Source of the DNA: Planctomycetes bacterium UBA1146
GTDB taxonomy: Bacteria > Planctomycetota > UBA8108
Direction: 5' to 3'
Length of the DNA stretch: 64,000 nt
Assembly (NCBI GenBank): GCA_963579555.1
Contig: CAUZHA010000005.1
Coordinates: forward strand, 9,938-73,937
This document shows positions 11,409 to 53,461 of the stretch, piece by piece. Both the position numbers and the translations under genes were made by a program. The notes under the pieces were generated by a model. That model searched no databases. It was not told the origin of the DNA and worked only from the letters and a program-made list of their open reading frames with translations. Each line of letters begins with the position of its first letter. Position 1 is the first letter of the stretch.

Positions 11409-14400
11409 TCAGGGCTGCTGGCGGGGGTGGGGGACGACCTCGGTGGAGAGTGCCCGCTGGCGGAGCTCGACCGGTACGGGACCGGTTTCCGGATGGGGGA
11501 ATTCTCCGATCAACTCGCCAGCCTCGTTGAGGAAGGCGGAGAGGTCGTGTACGACACCCTCGCCATCTTCGCTCAGGAACCTGCCATTGCCGAAGCCATA
11601 GGTCTCGCTGAGCCGGGACTGGTTGTCGGGACCGGCCCCGGGCTTGACCGGGTGGCAGGTGTCACAGTTCTGGGGAACCCTGCTGACAGTGTGATGGTGG
11701 AAGGGATTCCAGCCGAAGCCGGTCCTCCCGTCGGAGCTGGTTCTCACCCTGTCGCGGTATTGTTCCTGGCCCGCCGGGTTGATATAGCTCATGAAGATGC
11801 TCATCGAGCTGCAAAGAGGAGAGACCTTGCCTCGCTCGTTCATGCCGATGGCGAAGAAATCGAGGGAGTAATCATCTCTTGAGACGGCGATGGCTCCCTG
11901 GGAGTCCAGGCCAGTGGTCAGGTTGCGGGCGGTCCTGGAATCATCAACCGTAACGTGGCAGCCGAAGCAGGTCTGCCGCCAGGAGGTATGACAGGTATAG
12001 CACTCGAGACGATCGGTATGGGAGAATCCGTTCTCGTCCACGCCCATCGCCTCGTGCATGGCATCGTTGACCCCGCTCTGGAGAATGGTGTAGATCTGTG
12101 GGACGTTGAGCTCCTGGTCGCTGTTGGCAAGGCCCAGGCGCATGCGCCCGTCGGCATCACGTCGCAGGCGTCTGAGCCTGGAGCCGGCCGAGTTGACGAA
12201 GTGGCCTTCGGCTGTTTCGGTGACGGCCTCCCTCACCGTGCCGTGGCAATCTTCACAACGGATTCCGACCTGGTAGCGTTCCGAGCCGTAGATGTTTCCA
12301 TCTCCGTGAACATCGGAGCCGACATGGCAGTCGATGCAGGCCATGCCGGCGGTCGCATGGAGATCAGGCGGAGTTTCGTCGTGGTCATTCGTGCTGTCCT
12401 CGTCGGTGAAATAATAGTCGATGCCATGGGCGTGCATTTCCCGGCCGAGGGTTACCCCGTTGGGCGGAGTCTTGTCTTCGGAGAAGCCCCCTTCGCGAAT
12501 GCCCTGGTAGGCCAGGCCGATTCTTCCTCCCTGGAAATGGCAGCGGGAGCATTGCTCGGTGGTGATCTTGCTGGTCAGGGTGTGGCGGCGCGGATGGGGT
12601 GGGAAATCCTTGGAGATGACCGGGTCCGTCGAGGCCGAGATGCCATCGTCTGAATAGAGCATATGGCAGGCTGTACAGCCCGAAGAACGGTAGTTGCCCG
12701 CCGCGTCATTGGGGCCGAAATCGTTCAGGTGGCAGGTTGGGCATGATTTCGGCAGGTAGACGTCGATGCAGGCCCCGATCGAGCCTCGCTCGATCGCCGG
12801 ATCCGGCTCCCTGAGAGCGAGGAGCTGTCCAACGGCTCCAGGGGGGGCGGTGGCTGGGTTGAAGCTCTCGTTCACGACATCGACCGCGGCATGGGTGTGG
12901 GCCCTGTCCTGGGTGCCGGCGAGGAAGCGCGGCAGCGTGTAGTGGCCGGCGTAGGTCGCCATGACAGAAAACTTGACCTTTTCGACGGTCTCCTGGTGGC
13001 AGCCGCTGCCGTTGCTGGCGGGGCTGCTTCCGCCGCAGCCCTGGTGAGCGACACGGAGGTCGCCGGGGTTGATGAAGCGAAGGTAGCCTTTGTCTGCAAG
13101 GTCCAGGGCATCGGTGGAGAGACGGCGCAGGAGGGAGGGGCCGCCGGCCGGGGCTACGTGCGCATCCTGGCGGGTAAAGGCCGTAGGGTCGCCTCCATGG
13201 CAGTCCGTGCAGGTGAGTGCGGCCCAGGGGTGTGCGTCTTCGATCCCGTGGCGGACTCCGGTCTGGTCGAGGGGGAGATGGCAGCCTACGCAGCCGATCT
13301 CTCCGGCAGGGATGTCCACGGTGTCGGGCTCGGGGAGATCGTCAGGGGCTCCGATGGTCAGCACCAGCCGCAGCGTGCGCTCGAGGACCAGCCCGCTCCC
13401 GTCCGTCAACTGGGCCCAGAGCTCGGCCTGTGTTCCATCGAGGACGAAGAGGTCCTGGGCATTGGAGACATCGAAAACGAGCCCGAGCTTGTGGGCGAAA
13501 CCATCAGAGCGCTCGGTCATCTCAAACACCCTGGCTAGATCGAAGAGGGTCTCAGTGGCTGTCTTCAGCTGGAACCGGACCCTGACGGTTTCCTCGCTGT
13601 TGATGCATCTCGCCTCGACATTGAGCCGGATGTTGGCTCCTCCCTGGCCGAAGAGAACGACCGGGAGAAGGTCGCAGTGACTCATTCGGCCAAAGCCCTG
13701 CAGGTTCCGGCCGAGATAGAGCACTCGTCCCTCGGGGCAATCCGCTACCGGTTCCGCCACGCGGTTTTCCGGCGGACCCTCGCAGCAATCCACCTCGATC
13801 GGCAGCGGGTTCATCGAGCAGCCGGTCGCCGGGTCGCAGTCATTGAGGGCGCAGGGAGAGTCCGGGCAGACCTGGAAGATGAGCAGGCTCTCCGTTGTCA
13901 GCGGCGGCAGGCTGTCGTCCGTGACGCTGAAGGGTATGTAGGTCGGGCCGGCCTGTTCCGGCGCAGGGGTCCATTCAAACAGCCCGGTGGCGGAGGCGAA
14001 TGTCGCTCCTGCGGGAAGCTTGGATGCGGAATACTCGAGGCCATGGCCATCCGGGTCGGTCGCGCCGATGAGAAAGCTGATGGGTCGGCCCGTGTAGGTT
14101 CTGTAGACCGACCGGGTCGGTATGCTCGGGGGTTGGTTGACGGGGGAGCCAGCCTCGAGGCAGATGATGAGTCCCTCAGCCCGGGTGCTTGCGGCAGGTT
14201 TTCCATCATCGCTTACCTCGATGATCAAGGGGTGCTCCCCCGCCTGTCCCTGGGCCGGGGTCCACTCGAAGCTTCCCGATGCGGGGTCGATGGATGCTCC
14301 CGCCGGCGCCTCGATGAGCTCGAAGGCGATGTTGTCGTTCTCCGCGTCTGTCGCCGCGAGCTCGAACGCCAGCCTGACACCTTCACGCGAATAGATGGTC

Positions 14401-15350
14401 CCCGGCTCTTCCACGTTCGGAGGCAGGTTTCCCTGGAGAACCCGGATAAGTCCGTTGGAGATGGTCGAAAGCGGCGGCTGGCCGTTGTCGCTGGCTCGGA
14501 GCTCGATCCGGTGGTCACCTTCCTGGCCGAAGGAAGGGGTCCAGGAGACACTGCCGCTTGCCGGGTCGATGGTGAGACCTTTCGGTCCAGTTTCAACTGA
14601 GTAGGTGATGTCGTCGTTGTCCGGGTCCGCCGCGCTGAGCTGGAAGCTGACCTCGGCGCCTTCCCGGGCGATAATGGTTCCGATCGGCTCGATGGCCGGG
14701 GGACGGTTGATCCCCGCGCATTTTTCCAACTCGGCAGGGCTCAGCGGGGGAGGGGGAGGGCCCCCGAGGAAAAGGAAGTCCAGCAGGTAGATGGCATCGG
14801 TGATGTCCAGGCCGTCTCTTGAGTTGACGTCGGCTACCGGTTCACAGAAAGAATCGGCTCCCCCGAGGAAGAGAAAACGGAGGATGATGATCGCGTCGGT
14901 CAGGGCGATTCCTCCATCCCGGTCGAGGTCGCCGCGCAGGTCGTTGGCGATGGATTCCACCGCTCCTTCATCGATCCAGCGGGCGATCAAATCAATATCT
15001 TCCGGGCTGAGCGGATCCGCCAGCCTTGGCATTCGGGCGCCGAATTCAGGTTCCTCCTGCGCTATCTTGAGCCACAGGGGGCTGGCCTGGGAGTCTCCAG
15101 GAACGATGGTTGCCCCATCGTACTGGAAACCGAAGCTGGCCAGGGCGGCATCGTAGCTGGAGAGATCGATGCCGCTGCTGTCCATCCCTATATGACAGAA
15201 GCCGCCCTCGCAGGAGCGGGTGAAGATCGGCTGGATCTGGCTGCTGTAGTCTACCTGTGCCCGGGCGATGGAGCAGACGCAGAGGTGCAACATCACGGCC
15301 GTGATGAGCGGAATCTTGCAGCGGATATTATCAATCAGCAGGTTGTACAT
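11409..15350 (-). CDS. Secreted multiheme cytochrome c: PSCyt1-like heme domain, dockerin, 3 Ig (He_PIG-like) repeats, C-terminal multiheme domain
   Basis: 10 CxxCH plus CX4CH and CX11CH; RGDLDRDG..DVNSRDGLDITD dockerin; three N.PP...A.D.....F/V.WTP repeats. Confidence 0.85.
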   Translation of the reverse strand: MYNLLIDNIRCKIPLITAVMLHLCVCSIARAQVDYSSQIQPIFTRSCEGGFCHIGMDSSGIDLSSYDAALASFGFQYDGATIVPGDSQASPLWLKIAQEEPEFGARMPRLADPLSPEDIDLIARWIDEGAVESIANDLRGDLDRDGGIALTDAIIILRFLFLGGADSFCEPVADVNSRDGLDITDAIYLLDFLFLGGPPPPPLSPAELEKCAGINRPPAIEPIGTIIAREGAEVSFQLSAADPDNDDITYSVETGPKGLTIDPASGSVSWTPSFGQEGDHRIELRASDNGQPPLSTISNGLIRVLQGNLPPNVEEPGTIYSREGVRLAFELAATDAENDNIAFELIEAPAGASIDPASGSFEWTPAQGQAGEHPLIIEVSDDGKPAASTRAEGLIICLEAGSPVNQPPSIPTRSVYRTYTGRPISFLIGATDPDGHGLEYSASKLPAGATFASATGLFEWTPAPEQAGPTYIPFSVTDDSLPPLTTESLLIFQVCPDSPCALNDCDPATGCSMNPLPIEVDCCEGPPENRVAEPVADCPEGRVLYLGRNLQGFGRMSHCDLLPVVLFGQGGANIRLNVEARCINSEETVRVRFQLKTATETLFDLARVFEMTERSDGFAHKLGLVFDVSNAQDLFVLDGTQAELWAQLTDGSGLVLERTLRLVLTIGAPDDLPEPDTVDIPAGEIGCVGCHLPLDQTGVRHGIEDAHPWAALTCTDCHGGDPTAFTRQDAHVAPAGGPSLLRRLSTDALDLADKGYLRFINPGDLRVAHQGCGGSSPASNGSGCHQETVEKVKFSVMATYAGHYTLPRFLAGTQDRAHTHAAVDVVNESFNPATAPPGAVGQLLALREPDPAIERGSIGACIDVYLPKSCPTCHLNDFGPNDAAGNYRSSGCTACHMLYSDDGISASTDPVISKDFPPHPRRHTLTSKITTEQCSRCHFQGGRIGLAYQGIREGGFSEDKTPPNGVTLGREMHAHGIDYYFTDEDSTNDHDETPPDLHATAGMACIDCHVGSDVHGDGNIYGSERYQVGIRCEDCHGTVREAVTETAEGHFVNSAGSRLRRLRRDADGRMRLGLANSDQELNVPQIYTILQSGVNDAMHEAMGVDENGFSHTDRLECYTCHTSWRQTCFGCHVTVDDSRTARNLTTGLDSQGAIAVSRDDYSLDFFAIGMNERGKVSPLCSSMSIFMSYINPAGQEQYRDRVRTSSDGRTGFGWNPFHHHTVSRVPQNCDTCHPVKPGAGPDNQSRLSETYGFGNGRFLSEDGEGVVHDLSAFLNEAGELIGEFPHPETGPVPVELRQRALSTEVVPHPRQQP

Positions 15351-15689: not shown

Positions 15690-16577
15690 ATGGGACCCCT
15701 GAAGCTGAGAATTCTGGCCCTGGCCTCGATCGTCTGGATGGGGGGCCCACTTCCAGGCCAGGAGGAGGATTGCCGCGCTTCGGGAATTCTGAGCCTCGAT
15801 GCTTCGCCGCCACCGCTACCCGGGCGCGAGTATCACATCGAGTCGGGAGAGATTTTTCACTTTACCCTGGAGGCCCGCCTGGAAACGCATTTTGAGGGGG
15901 ACTGGGGTGTCCAGGGGTTCTCCCTGTCTGTGGCTCACGATGCCGATGTGCTGGAGATTACAGGCGCCACCCAGGAGGGAACGGATGCCGATGAGGTGTT
16001 TCTCCCCTTCGGTTTTGAGCGTATCGAAACAGTGGATAATGAGACCGGTGAAGGTTTCGTCTGCGCCGTCGTGCTCAGCCTGGTGCAGCCGGTTACGCTT
16101 CCTCCCGAGGGGTTTTTTTCCCTGGCCCGGGCCAGCTACCGGGCGCTGGTGCTGCCGGAAGATTCGGCGGGGGTCTCGACCACGGTCGAATACAGGGATG
16201 GCCTGCGAGGTTCGGCCCAGCCGGTGAGGAACAGGGTGACCTGGAATGGCAGGTCGATTACGCCCTGTGTCGTGCCCTTTTCCATCCGGTTGACATTTCC
16301 GCCGCCGGGGGTTTTTCTTCGTGGAGATTTCGATGGGGGCGGCTCTGTCGACCTGTCTGATGCCGTCGCCGTCATCGGCCATCTCTTCCTCGCCGGGCGT
16401 CCTCCCGGTTGCTTTGATGCCGCGGATGCGAATGACGATGGACGGCTCGATATCGCCGATCCGATCTTCGGTCTCGATTTTCTTTTCAGGGGAGGGACTC
16501 CACCTCCGCCGCCATTTCCTCGGCCCGGCCCTGATCCGACCGAAGATGGACACTCCTGCGCTTCCCGTCCCGGCTGA
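15690..16577 (+). CDS. Secreted cohesin-like domain + dockerin protein (adaptor)
   Basis: VQGFSLSVAHD..GFE..AVVLS..PVTL..DGLRGSAQPV.N shared with the 37808 repeats; FLRGDFD..DANDDG dockerin. Confidence 0.75.
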   Translation: MGPLKLRILALASIVWMGGPLPGQEEDCRASGILSLDASPPPLPGREYHIESGEIFHFTLEARLETHFEGDWGVQGFSLSVAHDADVLEITGATQEGTDADEVFLPFGFERIETVDNETGEGFVCAVVLSLVQPVTLPPEGFFSLARASYRALVLPEDSAGVSTTVEYRDGLRGSAQPVRNRVTWNGRSITPCVVPFSIRLTFPPPGVFLRGDFDGGGSVDLSDAVAVIGHLFLAGRPPGCFDAADANDDGRLDIADPIFGLDFLFRGGTPPPPPFPRPGPDPTEDGHSCASRPG

Positions 16578-16586
16578 AGATTTCAG

Positions 16587-19530: not shown

Positions 19531-21861
19531 ATGGCTTTGATAACGACGAATACCAGGGTTCTGGCAAAGCGTTTTGTGGGGAATGGCAGGCGGGGGCCTG
19601 CCGCTCCAGGTCGAGTTGGCGTCGCGGGGGCATGGTTGCCTAACGCTCTGGCGATAGCCCTGTTTGTTTTATTCAGCGGCGGCTTCGTGTCTGCCGGCGG
19701 CGGTGATGAGGAGTGCCGCGATCCCGCTGCCCCCGCCGGGCCCTCTCCATCTGATGGGCAGACCGGCAGGCGAACTCGCACGAGCCTCCAGTGGGGAGAG
19801 AGGCAGACGATTCAGCGCAAGGTCGTCTATGGGGATGATGACCGCCAGGATGTTTACCAGGTAAACAACGAGGCCCTCCTGAGAATGTCCCAGGGGACCT
19901 GCGCCCTTGTCTCGCCCTTCAACATCGATCGACAGGCCGATGGCCGCTACCGGCTCTCGGGGACAGCCCTGGGAGCGGCTCGTGATCTCTGCGCATCGGA
20001 GCCGTTCCGGGAGCAACCCACGGCGGCTTTCTGTTCCGGTTTCCTGGTCAGCCAGGATGTGGTAGCCACGGCCGGCCATTGTGTTCCGGCAGGCGGCTGC
20101 GATGGGACAGCCTTCGTTTTTGATTACAAGATGATCGATTCAACCACCGCGAAAATGGTCATAGAGGAGGAGAACGTCTATTTTTGCGAAGAGGTCGTTG
20201 GCCATCGTCTTTCCGGAGGTGTGGATTACGCCCTGGTCAGGCTTGACAGGCCGGTTACCGGCAGGCAGCCAGTGGAGATCAGGAGATCGGGCAGGGTTCC
20301 AGACCGGACACCGCTGGTTATGGTGGGGCATCCTTCCGGCCTGCCGCAGAAGATCGCCGGCGGGGCCCGGGTGAGAGACAACTCAGCTTCAAGTCATTTC
20401 GTAGCCAATACGGACTCCTACGGGGGCAATTCAGGCTCGCCGATCTTCAATGAACTCACCAGCGAGGTGGAGGGCATCCTGGTCCGGGGAGTCGCTGATT
20501 ATGTTCCCGAGGGCAATTGCTACGTATCCAATCATTGCTCCGACGAAGGTTGCGATGGCGAGGATGCGACCCGCACGACTCATTTTTCCGACCTGCTTCC
20601 TCCTGCGGGCGGACCGGTTGTTTACGCGGTCTATCTGGGGCGCTGCGGCAACCTGGAGTCTCTTGGCGAGACCGGCGAGCGCAGCTGGATCGTATCAGGG
20701 CTGGAGATCAATACCGAGTATTGCTGGCAGGTGAGGGCGAGCAACGATTGCGGTTCGGTCGTCGGGGCTGTCTGGAGCTTTACCACCGGCGAGGAGGTCG
20801 GGCCGGATCCGAATCTGCCGAATGACAGCGTCGATAATGCCTGGCCCATCGAGGGACTCGGCGGCTCCTTCGATGATGCCAGCGACTCTGCGAGCCCGAT
20901 CCTGTGGTGGGCCTGGGAGGCTCCTCGCTCGGGGCGCGTGGTCTTTGATACCCGCGGCAGTGGTTTTGACACGATCCTTTCCGCCTACGATTCCGCCCGC
21001 GGGATCCTGGCGGAAAACGATGATGCCTATCACCTGCAGAGCGAGGTCAGCTTCGAGGTCGATGGCGGGGAGACCTACTACATTTCCGTTTCAGGCTACT
21101 CCGGGGCTACAGGCGACATCTCTTTGAACTGGTCTCTCGGAGGAGAGGCGCCCGCTCCCGGCCCGGCTCCAGGCGGAGGTCCGGTCAACGATGACCTCGC
21201 CGACCATCTCGAGTTCGACTCGAGTGAGGGGCGGGCGACCGGCAACAGCGATACCGCAGGTGACGAGGGCTGGGAAGGCGATCTCTTCGGAGGCGCCTCG
21301 GTCTGGTGGGAATGGACGCCTCCGACCGGAGGGCTTCTGCGGGTTGACACCATCGGCAGTGATTACGATACGACCCTGACAGTTCTCCGCGGCGATTCGC
21401 CCGGTGAGCTCTCGGTTCTTGGAATGAACGATGATTCCAGCGGGCTCCAGAGCCGGGTCGAGTTCACCGCAGAGGCTGGTCAAAGCTACCTGATCAGGGT
21501 CGCCGGGTATAGCGGCGCCACCGGCGACATCGTCCTCAACTGGCAGGTGCTGGAACCTTCTGAGCCTGTCGATGGTCCTGTCTGGTTCATGCGCTCAGAT
21601 GCGAACCAGGATGGCCTGTCGGATATGAGCGACGCGGTCGAGATCCTCGCCGAGCTCTTTCTCGGCGAGGGCCCCGGAAGGGGCTGCCCCCAGAGTCTCG
21701 ATGTCGATGACAATGGGGCTGTCGAGCTTACCGACAGCGTCTATCTGCTCACGTTTCTCTTCAATGGGGGAGATGCTCCGCCAGCGCCCTTCGGCTTCTG
21801 CGGAGTGGATTTCAGTGATGGTGGCCTCGTATGCGAGACCTACGCGCCCTGCGGCGAGTAG
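19531..21861 (+). CDS. Secreted trypsin-like serine protease with FN3-like domain, two PPC-like beta domains and dockerin
   Basis: TAGHC, DYAL, GNSGSP triad; two DT.GS.[FY]DT.L...NDD repeats; C-terminal dockerin; exact start uncertain. Confidence 0.85.
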   Translation: MALITTNTRVLAKRFVGNGRRGPAAPGRVGVAGAWLPNALAIALFVLFSGGFVSAGGGDEECRDPAAPAGPSPSDGQTGRRTRTSLQWGERQTIQRKVVYGDDDRQDVYQVNNEALLRMSQGTCALVSPFNIDRQADGRYRLSGTALGAARDLCASEPFREQPTAAFCSGFLVSQDVVATAGHCVPAGGCDGTAFVFDYKMIDSTTAKMVIEEENVYFCEEVVGHRLSGGVDYALVRLDRPVTGRQPVEIRRSGRVPDRTPLVMVGHPSGLPQKIAGGARVRDNSASSHFVANTDSYGGNSGSPIFNELTSEVEGILVRGVADYVPEGNCYVSNHCSDEGCDGEDATRTTHFSDLLPPAGGPVVYAVYLGRCGNLESLGETGERSWIVSGLEINTEYCWQVRASNDCGSVVGAVWSFTTGEEVGPDPNLPNDSVDNAWPIEGLGGSFDDASDSASPILWWAWEAPRSGRVVFDTRGSGFDTILSAYDSARGILAENDDAYHLQSEVSFEVDGGETYYISVSGYSGATGDISLNWSLGGEAPAPGPAPGGGPVNDDLADHLEFDSSEGRATGNSDTAGDEGWEGDLFGGASVWWEWTPPTGGLLRVDTIGSDYDTTLTVLRGDSPGELSVLGMNDDSSGLQSRVEFTAEAGQSYLIRVAGYSGATGDIVLNWQVLEPSEPVDGPVWFMRSDANQDGLSDMSDAVEILAELFLGEGPGRGCPQSLDVDDNGAVELTDSVYLLTFLFNGGDAPPAPFGFCGVDFSDGGLVCETYAPCGE

Positions 21862-29609: not shown

Positions 29610-31331
29610 ATGATCACCAGTTCTTCAGCTTGCAGCTTTCGTGCCGCGCACCGCGGCGCCTCTCCTTCCCGGGGCCTGGCCGTCCTGAGGTTACTGGTCG
29701 TCCTGGGGTTACTGGCCGCCGTGGCCTGGTTGCCGAGGCGTTTGCAGGCGCAGGAGAGCTTTGTCAGGGGAGATGCCAATGTCGATGCTTCCGTGGACCT
29801 CAGCGATGGGGTGCTCATCCTGCAGTATCTTTTCCAGGGAGGGCGGCAGCTTGACTGTCTCGACTCAGGCGATGCCGATGACAGCGGTAACCTTGACCTG
29901 AGCGATGCCGTCTACGATTTCAACTACCTGTTCCTCGGGGGAAGACCGCCGCCGGCTCCCTTCGCCGGCTGCGGTGAAGATCCGACGGCGGACGGCCTGG
30001 GTTGCGAGAGCTACGACCTCTGTGATGACAAGCCGCCGCCTCCTGTAAAGGGCGGGCGGAATATACTGGTCATCATCTCCGACGATCTGGGGGCGGACTC
30101 CGCCGCCTGCTACGGAGATGCGGGAGCTTTCGCTGCGACTCCGAATATCGAATCGCTGTGTCAGAGCGGCGTGGTTTTTCGAAACGTCTGGGCGAATCCT
30201 CTCTGTTCGCCTACCAGGGCCTCGATGTTGACCGGCCGCTATGGTTTCAGGACCGGCGTCGGCAACCTGGTGAACAACAACGGCGGAGGCCTGCCGAATT
30301 CGGAATTCACGATTCCCGAGGCGCTGGATGCCAATCCCGACCTGGGCTACGCCCATGCCTGCATCGGGAAATGGCATCTCAACGACAACTCCAATGGAGG
30401 CAACCGCCATCCGAACCTGGCCGGGTTTTCCCATTATTCCGGCGGTCTGCGCGGAGCGATCAGTGACTACAACTCCTGGCCGAAGGTGGTAAATGGCCAG
30501 CGGCGTAACGTGACCAATTATGCCACCACCGAGAACGTAGATGACGCGATCGATTGGCTCAACGCCCGGGATGGCCCCTGGTTCCTGTGGCTGGCCTTCA
30601 ATGCTCCCCATACTCCTCTGCATCTGCCACCTGAAGGACTTCACAGTCATGACAACCTGACAGGTACGGCCGCGGATATCGCCAACAGACCTCGGGAGTA
30701 CTTCGGGGCCATGATCGAGGCGATGGACAGCGAGATCGGCAGGCTGTGGGCTGCAATCGGCCCCGAGATGATGGCCAATACCGATGTCATCTATCTTGGC
30801 GACAACGGCACGGGCAGGACGAACGCTCCTGCGGGGATCTCAACCAGGTCCGGCAAGGGAAGCCTCTACGAGGGCGGGATCCATGTCCCCCTTGTCATCG
30901 CAGGGCCGAGCGTGGCCGATGGGGGCCGCGAGGTCGAAGGCCTGGTCGACCTGACCGATATTTACGCGACGGTCGTCGAGCTTGCCGGCGGCGATATGGA
31001 CAGCACCCTGCCGGCCGGGGTGGAGGTGGACTCCGTCAGCCTCCTGCCATACCTCGTTGACCCGCAGGCGGAGGATCTGCGCCCCTGGGCCTTTACCCAG
31101 CTCCTCGGCGAGGGAGGCCGGCCCGGCAACATGAACACCAGGGGGAATACGATCCGCGATGAGCGCTACAAGCTGATACGGTTCCTCAATGACACCGAGG
31201 AATTCTACGATCTGCAGGCTGACCCTCGGGAACGCAGCAATCTGGCCGCGGGAGCGCTCGTGGGCGATGAGCTGGCGCGATATGAGAACCTTGCCGCGAT
31301 CATGACTGACCTGCTCTCATCTGAAGAGTAA
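29610..31331 (+). CDS. Dockerin + sulfatase fusion
   Basis: FVRGDAN..DADDSG dockerin after signal peptide; NILVIISDD, CSPTR, GKWHL, GDNG. Confidence 0.9.
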   Translation: MITSSSACSFRAAHRGASPSRGLAVLRLLVVLGLLAAVAWLPRRLQAQESFVRGDANVDASVDLSDGVLILQYLFQGGRQLDCLDSGDADDSGNLDLSDAVYDFNYLFLGGRPPPAPFAGCGEDPTADGLGCESYDLCDDKPPPPVKGGRNILVIISDDLGADSAACYGDAGAFAATPNIESLCQSGVVFRNVWANPLCSPTRASMLTGRYGFRTGVGNLVNNNGGGLPNSEFTIPEALDANPDLGYAHACIGKWHLNDNSNGGNRHPNLAGFSHYSGGLRGAISDYNSWPKVVNGQRRNVTNYATTENVDDAIDWLNARDGPWFLWLAFNAPHTPLHLPPEGLHSHDNLTGTAADIANRPREYFGAMIEAMDSEIGRLWAAIGPEMMANTDVIYLGDNGTGRTNAPAGISTRSGKGSLYEGGIHVPLVIAGPSVADGGREVEGLVDLTDIYATVVELAGGDMDSTLPAGVEVDSVSLLPYLVDPQAEDLRPWAFTQLLGEGGRPGNMNTRGNTIRDERYKLIRFLNDTEEFYDLQADPRERSNLAAGALVGDELARYENLAAIMTDLLSSEE

Positions 31332-37807: not shown

Positions 37808-39865
37808 ATGAAATCCAGAAGTCTATGTGGATTGGTGGCAGCTTTGTGTATTGCAATCGCGGGGCAAAGCTCTGCGCAGGATGTTGCGCTCTCGTTTGGT
37901 GGCCCCTGCGGCGACGAGATTGTCGGAGCTGCCGGCTCAGCTCAGGAGATGACGCTTGATTGCGTTCTTACCACTTCGAATAATCCCGGAGATGCTGGAG
38001 CCCAGGGTTGGTCGATCAGTGTCGCCGCAGAAGGCGGTACGATCACCGGCATTACTACAGATGGCACTGTGGGCGCGGATGTGGCACAGGGTGGTCTTCG
38101 AAGCGTCGGTTTCGAAAAAACCGAAACAACGGAGCGTTCGGGAGTAACCCCCGGCGGTGCTAACGACTGTGATGGTCTCAGGGGTGCGGTGAGCGCCGTT
38201 GTTCTGTCCTTTGTCAATCCCGTGACTCTTGATGCTGAGGGTTCCGCAGTTATCGCAAAGGTCGATGTGGCGGCCGAGATCCCCAGCGTGCCTGGCGATT
38301 GCAGCGAGGTGACTGTTTTCTTCGGGGATGGTTGCCGCGGTGCTGGCCAGCCTGTAAGGAACGCTATCACCATGAACGCCTCGACCTTTATTCCCGAGCT
38401 TGGACGATGCGTCAAGACGCTCTGCGCTCCTCGACCGGAGGATTGCAGCCGGGCTGGTGACGAGGATGGCAACGGCCTCGCTGACTGTGATGACCCGGCC
38501 TGTTCCGACCTTCCGGCATGTCTCAATGTCGATGTAGCCCTTGGCTTCGGTGGCATTGAAGATGTTTCAGGTGACACCGGCGGAAGCTACAGCCAGACCG
38601 TCGACTGTACACTGACATCGTCGAATAATGATTTTGGTGTCGGAGCCCAGGGCTGGTCGATCAGTGTCGCGGCCGACGGTACCAGTATCTCTTCGATCAC
38701 GACGGATGGGACCGTGGGCGCGGATGTTGCGCAGGGTGGTCTTCGAAGCGTTGGGTTTGAAAAGAGCCAGACGACCCGTGAGGCCGGCAATGGCAGTGAT
38801 TGTGAAGGATTCAATGGAGCGGTGAGCGCCGTTGTTCTGTCCTTTGTCAATCCCGTGACTCTTGATGCTGAGGGTTCCAGTGTTATTGCCAAGATCGACA
38901 TAGAAGGCGAGCTGACTGCAGAGACGGGAAGCTGTGTTGGCGGACGACTTTTCTACGCCAATGGATGCCAGGGTGCCGGTCAGCCGGTTACCAACGCGAT
39001 CACCATTAATGCCCAGACAAGAGTCCCAGAGCTTGGCGCGGGTTCATTTCAAGCCTGCTCCGAAGAATCAGGTGATTCTCAGGCGGACTTCGATCTCGCC
39101 TTTAGCGGTGAGAACAGTGAAACGATCACAGGCGTTTTTGGCCTGACCTTCAACCAGACTGTTGATTGTACGCTGACAATTTCTGAGAACAGGACAGAGG
39201 TCGGAGCCCAGGGCTGGTCGATCAGTCTGGCGCCCGATGCGGGTGTCAGTGTCGTAGCTATCAGCGTTGATGGAACCGCCGCGGCTGACGAAGATGACGG
39301 TGGCCGTCGTCGAGGCGGGTTCGAGAAGAGTGAGCTCACTGTAGGGGCGGGAAACATGGGCGCGATCAGCGCGATTGTTCTCTCCTTTACCGAGCTTGTG
39401 ACCCTGCCTGCTTCCGGGACCGAGGTTATTGCCAAGATTGATATCCAGGCTCCTTATCCCGCTGTTGACGTAACTGAAACGAAAGTCATTCGTTATGTCG
39501 ATGGGCTTCGTGGCTCCGGCCAGCCGGTTGATAACGTAATTACTCATGATAACTTCGGTGTTCTCCCCAGGAAGGCGCCCTACGAGGTGACTCTTCTCGG
39601 TATTGATGAGAATGCGATCACTTACGACTGTAACACCGATGGGCGGGTGAACATTGCTGACGCGCAGTGTCTGCTGAATTGGTTGTTCCTCGGTGGTGCG
39701 GCGCCCGGCTGTCAGGACGCCATGGACTTTAACGGGGATGTCCGGCTGAATATCGCCGATGGTATTTCGGGACTCAACTTCCTCTTCCTTGGAGGACCGC
39801 CGCCTGCGGCTGGTGTCGGATGTCAGCCCTACCCCGATTGCGATCTTCAGGATGCCTGCTCCTGA
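37808..39865 (+). CDS. Scaffoldin-like protein: 3 cohesin-like repeats + C-terminal dockerin
   Basis: Strong RBS (GAAGGAG), signal peptide; three GAQGWSIS..GFEK..SAxVLSF..TL...IAK.D..G.GQPV.N repeats; DEDGNGLADCDDP linker; dockerin. Confidence 0.8.
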   Translation: MKSRSLCGLVAALCIAIAGQSSAQDVALSFGGPCGDEIVGAAGSAQEMTLDCVLTTSNNPGDAGAQGWSISVAAEGGTITGITTDGTVGADVAQGGLRSVGFEKTETTERSGVTPGGANDCDGLRGAVSAVVLSFVNPVTLDAEGSAVIAKVDVAAEIPSVPGDCSEVTVFFGDGCRGAGQPVRNAITMNASTFIPELGRCVKTLCAPRPEDCSRAGDEDGNGLADCDDPACSDLPACLNVDVALGFGGIEDVSGDTGGSYSQTVDCTLTSSNNDFGVGAQGWSISVAADGTSISSITTDGTVGADVAQGGLRSVGFEKSQTTREAGNGSDCEGFNGAVSAVVLSFVNPVTLDAEGSSVIAKIDIEGELTAETGSCVGGRLFYANGCQGAGQPVTNAITINAQTRVPELGAGSFQACSEESGDSQADFDLAFSGENSETITGVFGLTFNQTVDCTLTISENRTEVGAQGWSISLAPDAGVSVVAISVDGTAAADEDDGGRRRGGFEKSELTVGAGNMGAISAIVLSFTELVTLPASGTEVIAKIDIQAPYPAVDVTETKVIRYVDGLRGSGQPVDNVITHDNFGVLPRKAPYEVTLLGIDENAITYDCNTDGRVNIADAQCLLNWLFLGGAAPGCQDAMDFNGDVRLNIADGISGLNFLFLGGPPPAAGVGCQPYPDCDLQDACS
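38186..38878 (+). repeat. Identical 60-bp intragenic repeat between cohesin repeats 1 and 2
   Basis: 38186-38245 = 38819-38878 (gcggtgagcgcc...gagggttcc). Confidence 0.9.
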
Positions 39866-39926: not shown

Positions 39927-40265
39927 GTTGGTGTTTTTTGTGAGGCAGATTTGTAGCAGCGGTAAATGTACAGGGTGATTGAAAAGTCCTAATCCTTTAA
40001 ACTGCCTGTAATTAAAAGGTGTGGCGGGGGGGTTTCGCCTTTACTATTGATGTTAGGTCAATTTCAGAGGGCCAGGGGAGTTTCTCATTCAGCCACAGTG
40101 CTGTTGATATAAACCGTTTTTATTGTTAACTTTGGACCTTCGGACTGGGTTCGGATCTACAAGCAAGGTGGGGTTCGTTTTTACCTGGGTTTTAATGGTA
40201 GCTGAAAAATTAGAAGGCGAAATTTCCAGTCGAATCCTGCTCGTTTGCCAGCAGGGAGGGTAGTC

Positions 40266-41135
40266 ATGAAATATAGTTATTTTTACGCTTTGGTTGCGGT
40301 TTTAGGGGTTGCTCTTGGGGGGACTTGCTACAGCCAGGAGCTTAGTCCGGCTCAGTTTGAGCTCGGATTTTCAGGCAACAACAACGGAACGCTCAGGGGG
40401 CTTGCCGGGCAGACATTTACGCAGACAATTAACTGTACGCTAGCTACGTCCGCGAACGAGACCCCGCTTGGCGCTCAGGGTTGGTCCATCAGCATGGCGC
40501 CCGATGAGGGAATTAATATTGTCGGCATTACAGTTACAGGCACAGTTTCCGCCGAACAGGATGAGGGTGGGTTGCGGGCTGGTGAGGGATTCGAGAAGAG
40601 CGAGCTGACCGAAGGTGAAGGGAACGTTGGCGCGGTGAGCGCCGTGGTTCTCGGTTTTTCCGAGCTGGTGATGCTGCCTCTCACGGGCATCTCGGTGATC
40701 GCGCGACTTGATATCGAGTGTCCCTACCCTGCGGTGGATGTGAGTGAGACCAAGGTTATACGGTATATCGACGGGCTCAGCGGCTCCGGGCGTCCTGTAG
40801 AAAACGTCATTGCCCAGGCGGATTTCGGAATCCAGCCGGATTTGACCTCTTACGAGGTTACTCTTTTGGGAATCGACGAAAACGCCGTTACCTATGATTG
40901 CAATTCCGATGGCCGGGTCAACATCGCGGATGCTCAGTGCATGCTGAATTGGCTGTTCCTGGGTGGACCTGAGCCCGGTTGCCGTGACGCTATGGATTTT
41001 AACGCGGATAGCCGTCTCAATATTGCAGACGGCATCTCCGGGCTGAACTATCTCTTCCTTGGAGGACCTCCTCCTCCGGCAGGAGTCGGCTGTAAGTCCT
41101 ATCCCGATTGCGAAAGCGAGGCGGCCTGCCTCTAA
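40266..41135 (+). CDS. Single cohesin + dockerin, paralog of the C-terminal part of 37808
   Basis: GGGAGG RBS, signal peptide; near-identical PYPAVDV.ETKVIRY and YEVTLLGIDENA.TYDCN.DGRVNIADAQC. Confidence 0.85.
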   Translation: MKYSYFYALVAVLGVALGGTCYSQELSPAQFELGFSGNNNGTLRGLAGQTFTQTINCTLATSANETPLGAQGWSISMAPDEGINIVGITVTGTVSAEQDEGGLRAGEGFEKSELTEGEGNVGAVSAVVLGFSELVMLPLTGISVIARLDIECPYPAVDVSETKVIRYIDGLSGSGRPVENVIAQADFGIQPDLTSYEVTLLGIDENAVTYDCNSDGRVNIADAQCMLNWLFLGGPEPGCRDAMDFNADSRLNIADGISGLNYLFLGGPPPPAGVGCKSYPDCESEAACL

Positions 41136-42345: not shown

Positions 42346-43962
42346 TCAGCAGCTCTCATAGGCCGCGCAGCCGAGCGAATCCCCGCCAGCCGCCGGGTCG
42401 TTGTCGCATTCGTTGCCTGGCGGTCCGGGAGCCGGTGGCCGGGCTGCCCCGTTGAACAGGTACCTCAGCAGGAAAACTCCATCCGTGATATCGATGCCGC
42501 CGTCATCGTTCGCATCGGCTGAATCAAGGCAGGCGGGGACCGCGCCGCCAAGGAACAGGTAGCTGAAAATCCGCGATGGATCCGATATGTCTACCGATCC
42601 GTCGGCGTTGGCATCTCCACGGTGAAAGGGCCGATCCGGAACGCATTCGCCGCCGAGCTCGTCGCCGTTGCCGTCGATCGCCGGACTGCCGGGTAAAACT
42701 CTCACGAGGTCCCTGATCGTCCGTGAGCTCTCGCCGCAATCACCCGAGATCGTCAGGGTGACGATGTAGGTGCCGGGCTCGGTATAGAGATGCGTCGGGT
42801 TTTGAGCGTCGCTTCTGGATCCATCTCCAAAATCCCATCTCCAGTTGCCGATGGCATCTCCAGCTGAGCGATCAAGGAAGCTGACAAGGAGAGGCGCGCA
42901 TCGAGGCCCCGTTCTCTCTATCGTAAAGTCAGCCGTTGGCGGAGGGCAGACGGTGTCAGCGAAGGTCTGCAGCAGTCCCGCGCTATAGCTGATCGCGATC
43001 GGGTACAGCTCCTCGGAATAGAGTCGCAGCAGTGTCCGGCTGTTTGCCGCGCCTCTCCAGCGCGCCGGGGTCAGCCGGTTGTTGTCGCCGCCGGTATTTT
43101 CGACATAAAAATTTCCGGTGATCCGCCTGGCACCCCCGGGTCCGCCTTCGTCTTCTGAGAAGTCGTCGGTGCTGGGCCACCACTCGTCGCAGGCGCTGGG
43201 CGAGCCAATGCAGGGGGGGAAGACGCCGGCCTCATCAAACTCTCCGATGTTGTCGATGACCCAATAATCGTCGCCGAGGAAGCCTCCATCGTGGAAGGTC
43301 AGGGTAGGGAACATGCGCTTGAACTGGGTGTCGGGCTGGGGGTTGGCCTCCTGGATGATCCCAGGCCAGGTCGTCGCGCTGTAGACGAGCAGGGCCGCGG
43401 TGTGGACGAAGGATTCCGGCGAACCATCGGCGGGGAAGACCGGCGCGAGATCGAGCAGGGGCAGGAAGTTTCCGCCTCCCCATCCCTCAAAATCATCGCC
43501 ATCGATGTGGGTGTCTGAGTGCGTATGGGCGGGGGAGGTCATGTCCTGGATGAGATGGATGCAGCGGCCTAACTTATGGAAGGCGCCGTTGGGGCCACCG
43601 AGATTCCCCGCATCGTAGGCGGAGATGGCCTGAGCCCAGAGGATCGGCATCGCGTCCCTGGCGTTGGAGGCGATGATGTTGGCCCAGTCGACCACCCCTG
43701 GGCAGGGCAGGTCAAAGCCGCGGCCGTTGTGGGGGTTGTAGGCGTGGTAGCAGTACTGGGGGAAGGTGTCTTCATCTATCGAGCCCTGGCCGATGTCCGC
43801 TCGGAAGCGGTTCAGCAGGCCGACATCGAGGATGTCGACCGCGTTGAGGCTGATGCCGCGATGGACCTCTACCTCGTGGGCGCTGGCTGGCCCAACCAGG
43901 CAGCAAAAGAGCAGGACCGCGGTACAGACTGAACGAAAGACTGGAAGGTCACTTTTTGGCAT
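42346..43962 (-). CDS. Zn-dependent phospholipase C / S1-P1 nuclease-like domain + PKD + dockerin
   Basis: Mature N-terminus HEVEVH; HAYNP; LG..IHLIQDMTSPAH..D.FE; WDFGDG..NPTH.Y..PGTY PKD; RGDAN dockerin. Confidence 0.75.
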   Translation of the reverse strand: MPKSDLPVFRSVCTAVLLFCCLVGPASAHEVEVHRGISLNAVDILDVGLLNRFRADIGQGSIDEDTFPQYCYHAYNPHNGRGFDLPCPGVVDWANIIASNARDAMPILWAQAISAYDAGNLGGPNGAFHKLGRCIHLIQDMTSPAHTHSDTHIDGDDFEGWGGGNFLPLLDLAPVFPADGSPESFVHTAALLVYSATTWPGIIQEANPQPDTQFKRMFPTLTFHDGGFLGDDYWVIDNIGEFDEAGVFPPCIGSPSACDEWWPSTDDFSEDEGGPGGARRITGNFYVENTGGDNNRLTPARWRGAANSRTLLRLYSEELYPIAISYSAGLLQTFADTVCPPPTADFTIERTGPRCAPLLVSFLDRSAGDAIGNWRWDFGDGSRSDAQNPTHLYTEPGTYIVTLTISGDCGESSRTIRDLVRVLPGSPAIDGNGDELGGECVPDRPFHRGDANADGSVDISDPSRIFSYLFLGGAVPACLDSADANDDGGIDITDGVFLLRYLFNGAARPPAPGPPGNECDNDPAAGGDSLGCAAYESC

Positions 43963-45855: not shown

Positions 45856-45893
45856 CAGGTGTCCAATCGTTCAAAGGGTTCCGGAGGATAGGC

Positions 45894-48260: not shown

Positions 48261-48435
48261 ACGGCTGGGTTTTCGGAAGAGGGTTCTTCCTACATCTTTA
48301 GACAAACGCCGTATCTTTGTAGGTTAGAATGATCCTGTGGGTATCGGATCGGTCCGTCCCGCCGACATGCCGATTTCCCGGCAGGTGAAAGTGAAGAGAA
48401 CTTTTTGAAGACCATAGAAATTGAAGGTGACCTGG

Positions 48436-50106: not shown

Positions 50107-50107
50107 G

Positions 50108-50929: not shown

Positions 50930-53461
50930 ATGAAGCGTTCTTTTTTTGAAAGCTGTGCCGGATTCTTTCGAATGAGGATCCTGGCGTTTCTCGTGTCCCT
51001 CTTCCCGGTCTTCGGCGCTGCTGTTGCCGGCGATGAGGATTTCTATGATGGCGAAGTTCTTCGCACCATCGAGCTGACCTTTCCCGGAAACAATTTCTGG
51101 AGCCAGCTTGCAGAGGTCTCCAGCGTAGATGACCAATACCTTGCCGGTGACATGACGGTAGACGGCATTGTCTATGAAGGAGTCGGGGTTCGCTGGCGGG
51201 GCAATACCTCCCAGAGAAATGCCGGTGAGAAGCGTTCTTTCAAGATCGCCGTAGACCACACCGATTCAGGTCTCGATCTTTACGGGTACCAGACGGTCAA
51301 GCTGAACAACGCCGCTGGCGATCCATCTTTTCTCAGGGAGGCGCTCTACTCGCAGACCTGCAGGAAATACTTCCCCGCGCCTACTGCGAACCACGTCAAG
51401 CTGGTTCTCAATGGGCAGAACTGGGGCATCTATGTGAATGTTCAGCAGTTCAACAAGGACTTTCTTGATGAGTGGTATGACAGCACCAAGGGAAACCGCT
51501 GGAAGGCCAATTCCGGAGGCGGAACGGGTGGTAATGGAAACCCGGGCGGCGGCGGTCGTCCTCCGCGTCCTCCGCGCCCCCCGCGTCCCGGGCAGAATGT
51601 TCAGCCGGTTGCCGTTCCCCAGGGGGGAGTCGTCCAGCCGAATGGCGCCGGCGCGGGGCAGGCCCTGCCTCCCCTCGGTAACTGCGGCGGCGGAAATTTT
51701 CTCACCAGGGGCCAGGGCGCTCTGACCTGGCTCGGAGCGAACCAGAGCCAATACCAGGCCGCCTACGAGCTCAAGTCCGATGACCAGGATGATCCATGGG
51801 CGGCACTGGTCGAATTCTGTGACGTCTTCAACAACACCCCGGACGCCGAGTTCGAGGACCTTGTTCATGACATTCTGGATGTCGACGCGACACTCTGGAT
51901 GATCGCCCTCGAGAACGCCTTCGCCGATGACGATGGCTACATTCACAAGGGGCTCGACTACACGATCTACCAGGACCTCAGCTTCGGACGTTTCCACACG
52001 ATCCAGCACGATGGCAACGAGACCTTTCGCTGCATCGACGGCTGGCGGGTTCTTCCCGAGAGCGACAATCCAAACCGGCCGGTGCTGGTACGGCTGATGG
52101 AAATCCCACGCCTGCGGGCTCGCTACCTGGCCCACCTGCGGACCCTGGTCGAAGAATCGTTCAACTGGGACGCGATGGGGCCGATGGCCACCGATATGCA
52201 CAACCTGATCGCAGAGGAGGTGGAGCTTGACCCGAAGAAGCTCTTCTCCACCAGCGCCTTCTATGACAATCTCGAGAGCGCTTCGGGGAATGTCCCGGGG
52301 ATCCGGCAGTTTGTCGAGGAGCGGCGCGAATTTCTCCTGGCCCATCCCGAGCTCCAGGAGCCCGCTCCGAATATTCTCTCGGCTGAGCTCCAGCTCGCGC
52401 CCGATGGCGCGGGCGGCTTCTATCCCCCGGTCTCCGGGGAAGAGGTAGGCATTCGAGTAGAGGTTGGGGTTGGTCCCTCCGTTGATTCGGTGGTCGTCTA
52501 CCATGCCGGCGTGCCTGACGCTCCCTTTGAGGAGGTCTACCTCCGAGACGATGGAAAGAGTGATGACGGCGCTCCCGGAGATGGGGTCTATGGAGGCGCG
52601 GTGCCTTCCTATCCCGCGGGCACCGAGGTTCGCTATTACGTGGAGGTTTACGCTGACGGCGTCACGTCCTTCGAGCCGCCGCGCGCCGAGCTTGGAGCCG
52701 ACTCCTATATTGTTGACATGGATGTTGCCCAGTTCACCCCGGTGGTGATCAACGAGGTCATGCCCCTGAACGAGGTCACGCTGGCCGATCCCCAGGGAGA
52801 GCTTGATGACTGGGTAGAGCTGCACAATATTACAGCCGAGACCGTCGATCTCTCGGGCATGTATCTCAGCGACAAGGAGGGTAACCCCAGGAAGTGGGAG
52901 CTGCCCGAGGGCACGACGATCGAGGCCGGCGGATATCTGATTGTCTGGCTTGATGAGGACGGCGGCGATGAGCCGGGCCTTCACGCCAACTTCAAGCTCA
53001 CGAGTGAAGGTGAGATGCTCATGCTGGTCGACAGAGATGAGGGCGATAACCATCTGCTCAACAAGGTCATCTTTCCCGCCATGGAGCAGGACAGGAGCTG
53101 GGGTCGCTATCCCAATGCCACGGGCAATTTCGAGGCTCTCCAGGGAACCCCGGGAGAGTCCAATGGCAGTGGCGGCGGCGGGCCTGTCTTCCGTCGAGGA
53201 GATGTGAACGATGACGTCAATGTCGACATCTCCGATGCGGTTCGCGTGCTCGCCTATCTCTTTGGCGGAGTCGAGGCGCCGCCCTGTGTCGATTCCGGGG
53301 ATACCAACGACGATGGAGAGGTCAACATCACCGATGCGATCTTCCTGCTGAACTACCTCTTTGTAGGAAACCTGGAGCTGCCCGCTCCAGCGGGCGGCGC
53401 TTGCGGTGAAGACCCGAGCGAGGACCCGCTCGGCTGCGCCGTCTCCACGGCATGTAATTAG
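50930..53461 (+). CDS. CotH kinase family + lamin-tail domain + dockerin
   Basis: VGVRWRGNTS, KRSFKI, DPSFLRE, G.Y.NVQQ; VINEVM..DWVELHN LTD; RRGDVN dockerin. Confidence 0.88.
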   Translation: MKRSFFESCAGFFRMRILAFLVSLFPVFGAAVAGDEDFYDGEVLRTIELTFPGNNFWSQLAEVSSVDDQYLAGDMTVDGIVYEGVGVRWRGNTSQRNAGEKRSFKIAVDHTDSGLDLYGYQTVKLNNAAGDPSFLREALYSQTCRKYFPAPTANHVKLVLNGQNWGIYVNVQQFNKDFLDEWYDSTKGNRWKANSGGGTGGNGNPGGGGRPPRPPRPPRPGQNVQPVAVPQGGVVQPNGAGAGQALPPLGNCGGGNFLTRGQGALTWLGANQSQYQAAYELKSDDQDDPWAALVEFCDVFNNTPDAEFEDLVHDILDVDATLWMIALENAFADDDGYIHKGLDYTIYQDLSFGRFHTIQHDGNETFRCIDGWRVLPESDNPNRPVLVRLMEIPRLRARYLAHLRTLVEESFNWDAMGPMATDMHNLIAEEVELDPKKLFSTSAFYDNLESASGNVPGIRQFVEERREFLLAHPELQEPAPNILSAELQLAPDGAGGFYPPVSGEEVGIRVEVGVGPSVDSVVVYHAGVPDAPFEEVYLRDDGKSDDGAPGDGVYGGAVPSYPAGTEVRYYVEVYADGVTSFEPPRAELGADSYIVDMDVAQFTPVVINEVMPLNEVTLADPQGELDDWVELHNITAETVDLSGMYLSDKEGNPRKWELPEGTTIEAGGYLIVWLDEDGGDEPGLHANFKLTSEGEMLMLVDRDEGDNHLLNKVIFPAMEQDRSWGRYPNATGNFEALQGTPGESNGSGGGGPVFRRGDVNDDVNVDISDAVRVLAYLFGGVEAPPCVDSGDTNDDGEVNITDAIFLLNYLFVGNLELPAPAGGACGEDPSEDPLGCAVSTACN

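Follow-up and report, generated by a model that had tools for sequence, protein, structure and literature searches.

What are nine genes with dockerin-like modules doing within 42 kb of the genome of a marine planctomycete? The window analysed here, by which we mean the whole stretch of 64,000 nucleotides, comprises positions 9938-73937 of contig C5 (CAUZHA010000005.1) of Planctomycetes bacterium UBA1146, in an assembly of 4.65 Mb and 234 contigs that is 92.6% complete; its genes are named below by their lowest window coordinate. Planctomycetota are Gram-negative, and the host is an uncultured marine member of the phylum. The gene content of the window is typical of planctomycetes (PSCyt1/PSCyt2/PSD1, sulfatases, a 3-keto-disaccharide hydrolase), and seawater metagenomes contain DNA near-identical to it. 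Cohesin-dockerin pairing is the textbook basis of bacterial cellulosomes; to our knowledge, what is known of it outside cellulosomes comes mostly from domain counts and one planctomycete proposal. Peer et al. are said to have described, in 2009, non-cellulosomal cohesins and dockerins across three domains of life.

The answer to which we lean, as being somewhat probable, is that the nine genes belong to a class-wide, non-cellulosomal, putative cohesin-dockerin docking network. Proteins bearing a type-I-like dockerin would be exported by the Sec route, and the Ca-loaded dockerins of enzymes, lectin-like binders, proteins with CotH and lamin-tail domains (LTD) and a decahaem cytochrome would plug non-covalently into cohesins. 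The sockets would be supplied by a few scaffoldins and adaptors (15 in the genome, three in the window) with one to three diverged cohesin-fold modules each, and up to eight in relatives. The scaffoldins’ own dockerins would fit another kind of socket, and the resulting extracellular assembly would be hierarchical and have no part in cellulose breakdown.

The dockerin-like and cohesin-like modules

A preliminary description of this DNA had assigned Cys-containing dockerins to nine genes, and the assignment holds for all nine. Each gene carries one dockerin-like module of ~90 aa, and in a hand-cut alignment the nine can be laid over one another with ten invariant columns: D8, D19, D41 and D52, which are positions 1 and 12 of the two Ca loops; C36, which lies between the repeats; the L-F pair behind each helix; and a G. 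The build is that of two near-symmetrical EF-hand-like Ca loops, each with a helix ending in LF-GG, followed by a Pro-rich stretch and a Cys tail. Pfam Dockerin_1 matched six of the nine at E<=0.01 (17.8-30 bits), two of them above the gathering score, and gave no match for the other three, and a Pfam scan of the whole genome put five of the nine window places above the Dockerin_1 cut-off, with 97 matches at E<=0.01 and 69 above the cut-off in the genome overall. A profile of the nine modules aligned over both repeats with solved type I dockerins (2y3n_B, 1daq_A, 2mte_A and 3ul4_B, at E 3e-5 to 5e-5). On sequence grounds, then, the nine modules are dockerin relatives. Seven are C-terminal, one is N-terminal (gene 29610) and one internal (gene 11409). 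A hidden Markov model (HMM) built from the nine picks exactly these genes within the window; the EF-hand protein at 48421-50106, an internal negative control, is not matched. All nine genes are long open reading frames (ORFs) and all nine begin with an N-terminal hydrophobic segment, from which we judge that their products are probably exported.

The 183 ORFs that the same HMM finds across the genome sharpen the picture of the module. With D or N at loop positions 1, 3 and 5 and D or E at position 12 as the loop ligands, both loops are intact in 142 of the 183 modules and one only in 38. The consensus of the one repeat is nearly that of the other; loop positions 10-11, which in classical dockerins contact the cohesin, read [IL][ST]. 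Four Cys are present in 95 of the 183; 96% have the inter-repeat Cys, and the two most conserved Cys of the tail reach 69% and 74%. The module is probably stapled by one or two disulfides formed by the inter-repeat and tail Cys, and the sequences suggest that the nine window modules bind Ca. The AlphaFold2 (AF2) model of the gene 40266 protein has helices in its dockerin part at residues 220-232, 240-243 and 253-265. Set beside type I dockerins (PF00404), the module shares the tandem segments of ~22 residues, the DxNxDGxxxxxD Ca loop followed by a helix, the near-symmetry of the repeats, Ser/Thr at loop position 11 and a mostly C-terminal place on secreted proteins. It differs in its invariant inter-repeat Cys, its LF-GG motifs and its Pro-rich tail with two to three Cys; the set as a whole differs in a cargo that is not carbohydrate-active, in its marine planctomycete host and in its ~180 copies per genome. 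Elsewhere in the assembly, a 207-aa ORF (C44:8695-9315, plus strand) carries two tandem dockerin modules and the best module score in the genome (E 1.2e-40), and it may be a double-plug connector.

The candidate sockets are copies of a domain of ~175 aa, here called GAQGWS: gene 37808 has three of them, gene 40266 has one, and gene 15690 has one that is diverged. The diverged copy is 30% identical to the gene 40266 module; it is matched by the family HMM at E 5e-71, although it was itself among the sequences from which that HMM was built, and also by a whole-genome profile search. Pfam Cohesin matched none of six GAQGWS segments, even at E<=10, and its two matches in the whole genome, both below threshold, lie on other ORFs. 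Structure prediction gives a different result. An AF2 model of the gene 40266 protein, built from 27 sequences, has a mean pLDDT of 82, and 10-residue blocks over residues 31-200 average 80-98, most of them >90. The best matches of this model in the Protein Data Bank (PDB) by Foldseek are cohesins (E 9e-6 to 7e-4, with target TM-scores of 0.55-0.68 among the best four cohesin matches), and by VIA-align the 48 best PDB entries are all cohesins, at Z 10.2-13.4, spanning types I, II and III and two non-cellulosomal cohesins, with the first non-cohesin at rank 49. The superpositions take in nearly whole chains (131-153 residues aligned, root-mean-square deviation [rmsd] 2.6-3.9 Å, one row 5.2 Å). 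The five modules in the three window genes are thus predicted to take the cohesin fold. The preliminary description had seen cohesin-like domains in four genes and had allowed that its repeats might not fold as cohesins; at the level of prediction the GAQGWS repeats do, and the claim stands for genes 37808, 40266 and 15690, on predicted fold and family HMM, and is not confirmed for gene 32476.

What the GAQGWS domain shares with cohesins (PF00963) is the predicted beta-sandwich, which superposes on 4dh2_A, 4uyp_A, 1g1k_A and the non-cellulosomal 2xdh at Z 12.5-13.4 and rmsd 2.7-3.3 Å, and, with scaffoldin cohesins in particular, the occurrence of tandem copies on non-catalytic proteins with a dockerin at the end, in the manner of adaptor scaffoldins. 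It departs from them in being invisible to Pfam, in an identity of 4-14% and in length (~175 aa as against ~140 aa, by target lengths). The planctomycete scaffoldins also differ from cohesin scaffoldins in having, by Pfam scans, no carbohydrate-binding module (CBM), S-layer homology (SLH) domain or sortase signal.

A rare dockerin type, with IA at loop positions 10-11, an extra Cys and a different tail, occurs on four ORFs, all of them cohesin proteins and two of them genes 37808 and 40266. In a tree of the 183 modules, the dockerins of cohesin proteins fall in two supported clades (5/6 tips, 0.965; 4/4 tips, 0.968), one of which is marked by IA at loop positions 10-11, and for 8 of 15 cohesin proteins the nearest dockerin is again on a cohesin protein, as against ~1.15 by chance. 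Scaffoldin dockerins that keep to clades of their own speak for a hierarchy rather than free self-polymerisation, and their sequences suggest a specificity of their own.

Distribution of the modules and readings of the set

Genome-wide HMM searches for both modules, a check that the preliminary description had proposed, place the nine genes in a far larger set. At a threshold of i-E<1e-5, the dockerin module is found on 183 ORFs in 4.65 Mb, or ~1 per 25 kb and ~5.5% of long ORFs, of which a crude count gives 3307, with family HMM E-values of 1e-12 to 1e-40. The GAQGWS domain is found on 15 ORFs by HMM, or as 22 modules by profile search. A dockerin is present on all 15 of these ORFs, of which the window holds three, and the longer environmental relatives (27 of 27) consist of one to eight cohesin-like modules and then a dockerin; the earlier statement that every cohesin protein also carries a dockerin is therefore borne out for GAQGWS proteins both here and elsewhere. 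Gene 37808 orthologues of 685-689 aa share its build of three cohesin-like modules and a dockerin.

Cargo beyond the window was sampled by running Pfam on 61 more dockerin ORFs, from 20 loci chosen for clusters and cohesin ORFs and thus a non-random part of 174. Lectin-like or adhesive modules are many (Laminin_G_3, F5/8 type C, Malectin, PKD, TSP_3, legume lectin), LTD with CotH occurs on 5 of the 61, and the enzymes comprise one sulfatase, two metallophosphoesterases, one endo/exonuclease-phosphatase, one glucose/sorbosone dehydrogenase and one S8 protease (subtilase); 25 of the 61 have no family at E<=1e-5. No catalytic glycoside hydrolase family was found on any of the 70 dockerin proteins scanned (nine in the window and 61 others), and the carbohydrate-related finds among them are confined to accessory CHB_HEX_C_1, an RGI_lyase beta-sheet domain and Malectin.

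The expansion is a property of the lineage. Across a phylum sample of 201 genomes, 10 of them from the window’s class, with 25 candidates scored per genome, the dockerin module matched 25 of 25 in all 10 class genomes and gave one to two matches in 7 of the 191 others. Fuller scoring gave 126 matches among 141 candidates in one genome of 2.9 Mb (G056) and at least 150 (150 of 150 scored) in each of four more (G023, G081, G166 and G183). The dockerin module is hugely expanded throughout the window’s class and rare elsewhere in the phylum. The GAQGWS domain was found in 5 of the 201 phylum genomes, in 33 of 41 class genomes and in 18 of 18 sampled relatives of the window’s order, and Pfam Cohesin in 35 of the 41 class genomes at E<=1e-3 (29 above the cut-off). 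Since all eight class genomes without GAQGWS have Pfam Cohesin, every sampled class genome (41 of 41) has a cohesin-like domain of one kind or the other.

As a separate observation, dockerins of the LF-GG-PPP variant also occur in metagenome-assembled genomes (MAGs) labelled Zixiibacteriota, GN15, Thermoanaerobaculia, Ignavibacteriales and Deferrimicrobium (L033, L040, L043, L054, L058, L059, L070, L072, L074, L078, L083, L084 and L085); the variant thus extends beyond Planctomycetota.

The alternative that survives best, which we regard as possible and yet doubtful, is that the dockerin-like module serves mainly as a tag independent of cohesins, stabilised by Ca and stapled by disulfides, which would hold proteins in the envelope through a glycan or an envelope protein or be recognised by an export or maturation machinery; the cohesin-like proteins would then be just another class of cargo. 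Several of our results favour such a tag and weigh against a docking network. Dockerins greatly outnumber sockets, with 183 ORFs for 22 GAQGWS modules in the host genome, 126 matches for no GAQGWS and two Pfam Cohesin matches in G056 (a ratio of at least 60:1) and at least 150 for two cohesin-like domains each in G023 and G081 (at least 75:1). Of 184 modules placed, 154 end within 25 aa of the stop codon, as a sorting domain would. The conserved tail of PPxP and Cys runs on past the dockerin core and is without counterpart in the matches to solved dockerins, whose alignments end by position 62 of the 93 in the profile. No anchored or dockerin-free cohesin protein was found among the 15 ORFs of this genome, the 27 longer relatives or the checked cohesin ORFs of relatives; the same-genus ORF with Pfam Cohesin (in L011) is cut by a contig end and has no counterpart in the host assembly. 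Pfam likewise found no SLH domain, sortase signal or CBM on the window cohesin proteins or on 12 others scanned. A tagged share of ~5.5% of long ORFs is typical of sorting and anchoring tags. Two further points tell against a docking network in another way: Pfam Cohesin gives no match, so that homology with cohesins rests on a predicted fold at 4-14% identity, and the scaffoldin-dockerin clades and neighbour enrichment may in part reflect whole-gene duplication.

Against a tag stands first the placement of the remaining 30 of the 184 modules (24 N-terminal or internal and 6 otherwise placed), including one right behind a signal peptide and one internal; such placement suits a binding module, and a C-terminal sorting signal would not allow it. 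The likeness to the Por_Secre_tail of the type IX secretion system (T9SS) and to PEP-CTERM extends to similar abundance on diverse secreted proteins and a position mostly at the extreme C-terminus. It ends there: the nine proteins have no match to any known sorting-motif family (Pfam/NCBIfam) and no transmembrane helix, and the module belongs to the dockerin fold family. Moreover, cohesin-fold modules co-occur in 41 of 41 class genomes, always fused to dockerins, and the socket counts are lower bounds, because Pfam misses both local cohesin-like families. An excess of dockerins has a precedent in the cellulosome itself, where, according to a preprint, Clostridium thermocellum has ~70 enzymes with dockerins and nine cohesins on CipA to receive them (bioRxiv 10.64898/2026.01.19.700288).

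The preliminary description went further than a docking network and saw in the 42 kb one dense surface system that displays redox, hydrolytic and kinase activities together and can polymerise. That these genes form a dedicated, co-regulated machine we consider unlikely, although the density itself is real: nine dockerin genes in 42 kb make this the densest such stretch of the assembly, ~5-fold enriched over an expectation of 1.65 (Poisson P(>=9) = 5.8e-5, uncorrected for ~110 windows), and two more dockerin ORFs lie upstream of the window (C5:2-787 and C5:4641-8369), which makes 11 on the 74-kb contig. The three-cohesin scaffoldin lies beside an adaptor, and a related MAG has the same gene order of kinase, scaffoldin, adaptor, ORF and PKD/dockerin protein (L013; kinase 3-2990, scaffoldin 3546-5603, adaptor 5965-6876). 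This synteny, however, was seen solely in MAGs with 90% identity for the gene 40266 protein. The nine genes lie on both strands and are interspersed with unrelated ones, among them a pyridoxal-phosphate-dependent decarboxylase, a cyclase, a 3-keto-disaccharide hydrolase, kinases, HEAT proteins, a Met synthase-like protein, a second sulfatase and others. Seven of the nine have their nearest dockerin relative on a different contig (51-60% identity), and only 37808 and 40266 are mutual nearest relatives; similar clusters occur elsewhere (eight dockerin ORFs on C17, five each on C44, C9, C20 and C26), and scaffoldin dockerins are unlike enzyme dockerins. With both strands used, unrelated neighbours and nearest relatives on other contigs, the stretch is neither an operon nor a recent tandem expansion. 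It is a local peak in an old family whose members are dispersed, and what remains of the earlier claim is the density, not the single system, in a set of 183 members spread over the genome.

That the whole set is chance or artefact, with low-complexity EF-hand-like matches and a generic beta-sandwich over-read, is very improbable: the Dockerin_1 scores are low (three of nine without a match), Pfam Cohesin is silent and middling Z values are common among beta-sandwiches, but HMM E-values of 1e-12 to 1e-40 over 183 ORFs, ten invariant columns and 48 top structures that are all cohesins at Z>10 contradict it, as do the matches to solved type I dockerins, and the EF-hand protein at 48421-50106 escapes the module HMM.

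The window genes and their neighbours

The nine genes and their modules are collected in Table 1. With one exception, the cargo listed in the preliminary description is backed by Pfam or NCBIfam: multiheme cytochrome, protease, sulfatase and CotH protein all stand, as does the statement that glycoside hydrolases are absent, for Pfam finds none among the nine dockerin proteins of the window. The weak call is that of gene 42346 as a phospholipase C (PLC) or nuclease, which we rejected; Zn_dep_PLPC is matched only at E 1.2e-3, below the cut-off, and PDB entry 8cqm_A only at E 0.75.

Table 1. Dockerin genes of the window, with their modules, in window coordinates
Feature	Coordinates	Strand	Basis
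Gene 11409: multiheme cytochrome, 1313 aa, probably secreted; PSCyt1-like N-terminus, internal dockerin, three He_PIG/Big_9 Ig domains, 10 CxxCH	11409..15350	-	NCBIfam ExtM-like match E 4.6e-52, far below cut-off
Dockerin of gene 11409, internal (aa ~134-215), shortened tail	14706..14951	-	HMM match C5_21349_25404
Gene 15690: probably secreted adaptor, 295 aa; one diverged cohesin-like module, C-terminal dockerin	15690..16577	+	
Cohesin-like module of gene 15690, GVQGFS variant of the GAQGWS domain	15762..16301	+	
Dockerin of gene 15690, common (enzyme-type) form	16305..16574	+	Alignment and Pfam
Gene 19531: trypsin-like serine protease, 776 aa, with PPC and C-terminal dockerin (21592-21858)	19531..21861	+	Pfam Trypsin_2 2.7e-14, PPC 2.4e-9
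Gene 29610: sulfatase, 573 aa; N-terminal dockerin (29751-30029) right behind signal peptide	29610..31331	+	Pfam Sulfatase 3.8e-46
Gene 32476: probably secreted protein, 237 aa; GFQF-motif domain (32752-33120), C-terminal dockerin (32479-32760)	32476..33189	-	
Gene 37808: scaffoldin-like protein, 685 aa; signal peptide, three cohesin-like modules, scaffoldin-type dockerin	37808..39865	+	
Cohesin-like module 1 of gene 37808	37877..38422	+	Family HMM E 1e-78
Cohesin-like module 2 of gene 37808	38522..39061	+	Family HMM E 1e-74
Cohesin-like module 3 of gene 37808	39080..39601	+	61% identity to gene 40266 module
Dockerin of gene 37808, rare scaffoldin type (YDCN...NIADAQC; extra Cys; without CG-D-L-C tail)	39599..39862	+	
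Gene 40266: adaptor, 289 aa; signal peptide, one cohesin-like module (40341-40868), scaffoldin-type dockerin (40869-41132)	40266..41135	+	147 homologues
Gene 42346: 538-aa protein; weak PLC-like N-domain, PKD domain, C-terminal dockerin (42349-42636)	42346..43962	-	Pfam PKD_4 4e-17, Dockerin_1 4.7e-6
Gene 50930: CotH kinase-like protein, 843 aa, with LTD and C-terminal dockerin (53180-53458)	50930..53461	+	Pfam CotH 1e-39, LTD 8.4e-13, Dockerin_1 6.2e-7

Gene 32476, the one that was not confirmed as a cohesin protein, deserves separate mention. It in fact starts at Met101, as its homologues are 237 aa long. Its N-domain of ~120 aa, with the motif GFQF, is without a Pfam model and is a family distinct from GAQGWS. 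Comparison of the two families by hhalign gives a probability of 0.1%, or 0.5% with deeper alignments (447 and 70 domains). Profile searches of the PDB with gene 32476 gave matches confined to the dockerin part and none for the N-domain, Pfam Cohesin was found in none of 26 and none of 15 GFQF relatives, and the AF2 model of the gene has a pLDDT of 34. The family comprises 1468 representatives at E<=1e-3, with tandem arrays of up to 13 copies and proteins of up to ~5000 aa (P0146-P0294), while the host genome has a single copy; of 26 relatives scanned, three end in Dockerin_1 and two in a T9SS tail. Neighbours by protein language model are clusters that carry PF00963 on 13-31% of their members, at scores of 0.84-0.90. 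With its scaffoldin-like arrays, the GFQF domain looks like a second, undescribed scaffoldin-type repeat, and a kinship with cohesins is plausible but unproven.

For the scaffoldin pair 37808/40266 there are also data from seawater RNA. Six metatranscriptome runs, from six studies, contain 40-83% of the sampled words of this stretch, and contigs from four libraries cover both genes, 35 of 39 pieces at >=99% identity and four at 95-99%. Since RNA libraries can contain DNA, we take these contigs as consistent with expression and as nothing stronger; the intergenic segment at ~39950-40160 is mostly uncovered by them and is not used as evidence on transcripts. Some joints in the RNA-library contigs (runs X9, X11 and X18; for example, window 38185-38819) skip 633, 1396 and 1488 bases. 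The 633- and 1396-base joints join matching parts of the repeated cohesin modules, and the joints are likely to be assembly collapse across repeats and not real deletions.

Several neighbours of the nine are worth recording, all of them on the plus strand. The ORF at 9942-11402 combines a response-regulator receiver domain with a Ser/Thr protein kinase domain, and a Ser/Thr protein kinase of 1241 aa (33528-37253) lies immediately upstream of the scaffoldin pair. The EF-hand protein that served as negative control (48421-50106, 561 aa) has an N-terminal CSSCH haem-binding motif, a C-terminal EF-hand pair and a Gly/Arg-rich tail. Downstream, two tandem paralogues of ~1130 aa (54908-58306 and 58468-61905) combine NPCBM with F5/8 type C (discoidin) domains and are without a dockerin module.

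Relation to known systems and significance

Compared with the cellulosome, the planctomycete set has a non-catalytic scaffoldin with several cohesin-like modules (three in gene 37808, up to eight in relatives), but by Pfam scans neither a glycoside hydrolase cargo nor a scaffoldin anchor or CBM. A closer likeness is to adaptor scaffoldins such as ScaC of Ruminococcus flavefaciens: in both cases, small secreted non-catalytic proteins carry one to three cohesins and a dockerin of distinct type, and the ScaC cohesin structure 5lxv is among the best structural matches. Here, though, the context is not cellulolytic, and no anchoring scaffoldin was identified as receiver.

The nearest precedent is the planctosome, proposed for freshwater Nemodlikiaceae as a small peptide-degrading complex whose model includes an LTD-bearing, cohesin-carrying anchor and an adaptor with cohesin and dockerin (Andrei et al. 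2019, ISME J, PMC6461901). The two share a non-cellulosomal planctomycete setting for cohesin and dockerin, dockerin-bearing peptidases (here the trypsin-like protease of gene 19531 and the S8 subtilase), LTD within the set and a cohesin-plus-dockerin adaptor. They differ in that the planctosome is small, with cohesins that Pfam recognises, whereas the set described here has ~180 dockerin proteins with Cys-bearing modules, Pfam-invisible cohesins and a very mixed cargo, with a decahaem cytochrome and CotH kinases among it. The LTD, too, is differently placed, standing on the cohesin-bearing anchor in the planctosome and here occurring with CotH and a dockerin, never with a cohesin (gene 50930 and 5 of the 61 others). 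In two other sources, a 2024 genomic survey lists one species of the PVC superphylum with a two-cohesin scaffoldin (PMC11557425), and Omnitrophota are described as having giant proteins rich in dockerins (bioRxiv 10.1101/2023.11.21.568195). We found no description of Cys-bearing dockerins or of a GAQGWS-type cohesin in marine Planctomycetota in literature searches at the level of titles and abstracts; the supplements of PMC6461901 could contain domain tables that bear on it.

The main interest lies with the lineage and not with the window. What is unusual is the scale at which cohesin and dockerin folds are found in a non-cellulolytic marine lineage, and a cargo unrelated to that of cellulosomes. 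A bolder proposition, which we put forward tentatively, is that a whole class of marine Planctomycetota tags ~5% of its proteins (>100 per genome) with a disulfide-stapled dockerin and assembles them on scaffoldins that Pfam does not see. If so, decahaem cytochrome, CotH kinases, sulfatases, proteases, phosphoesterases and lectin-like binders would be joined on one surface, the cargo would be far broader than that of any cellulosome, and the set could rank among the largest cohesin-dockerin systems known. A practical lesson is that counts of such systems made with Pfam Cohesin will come out too low, because the sockets are too diverged for standard annotation. If the binding is not real, the module would be an abundant, undescribed tag for surface retention. 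If it is real, the class would offer a large natural set of Cys-stapled and possibly orthogonal cohesin-dockerin pairs, and it would suggest how degradation outside the cell, and possibly extracellular electron transfer as well, is arranged on the planctomycete surface.

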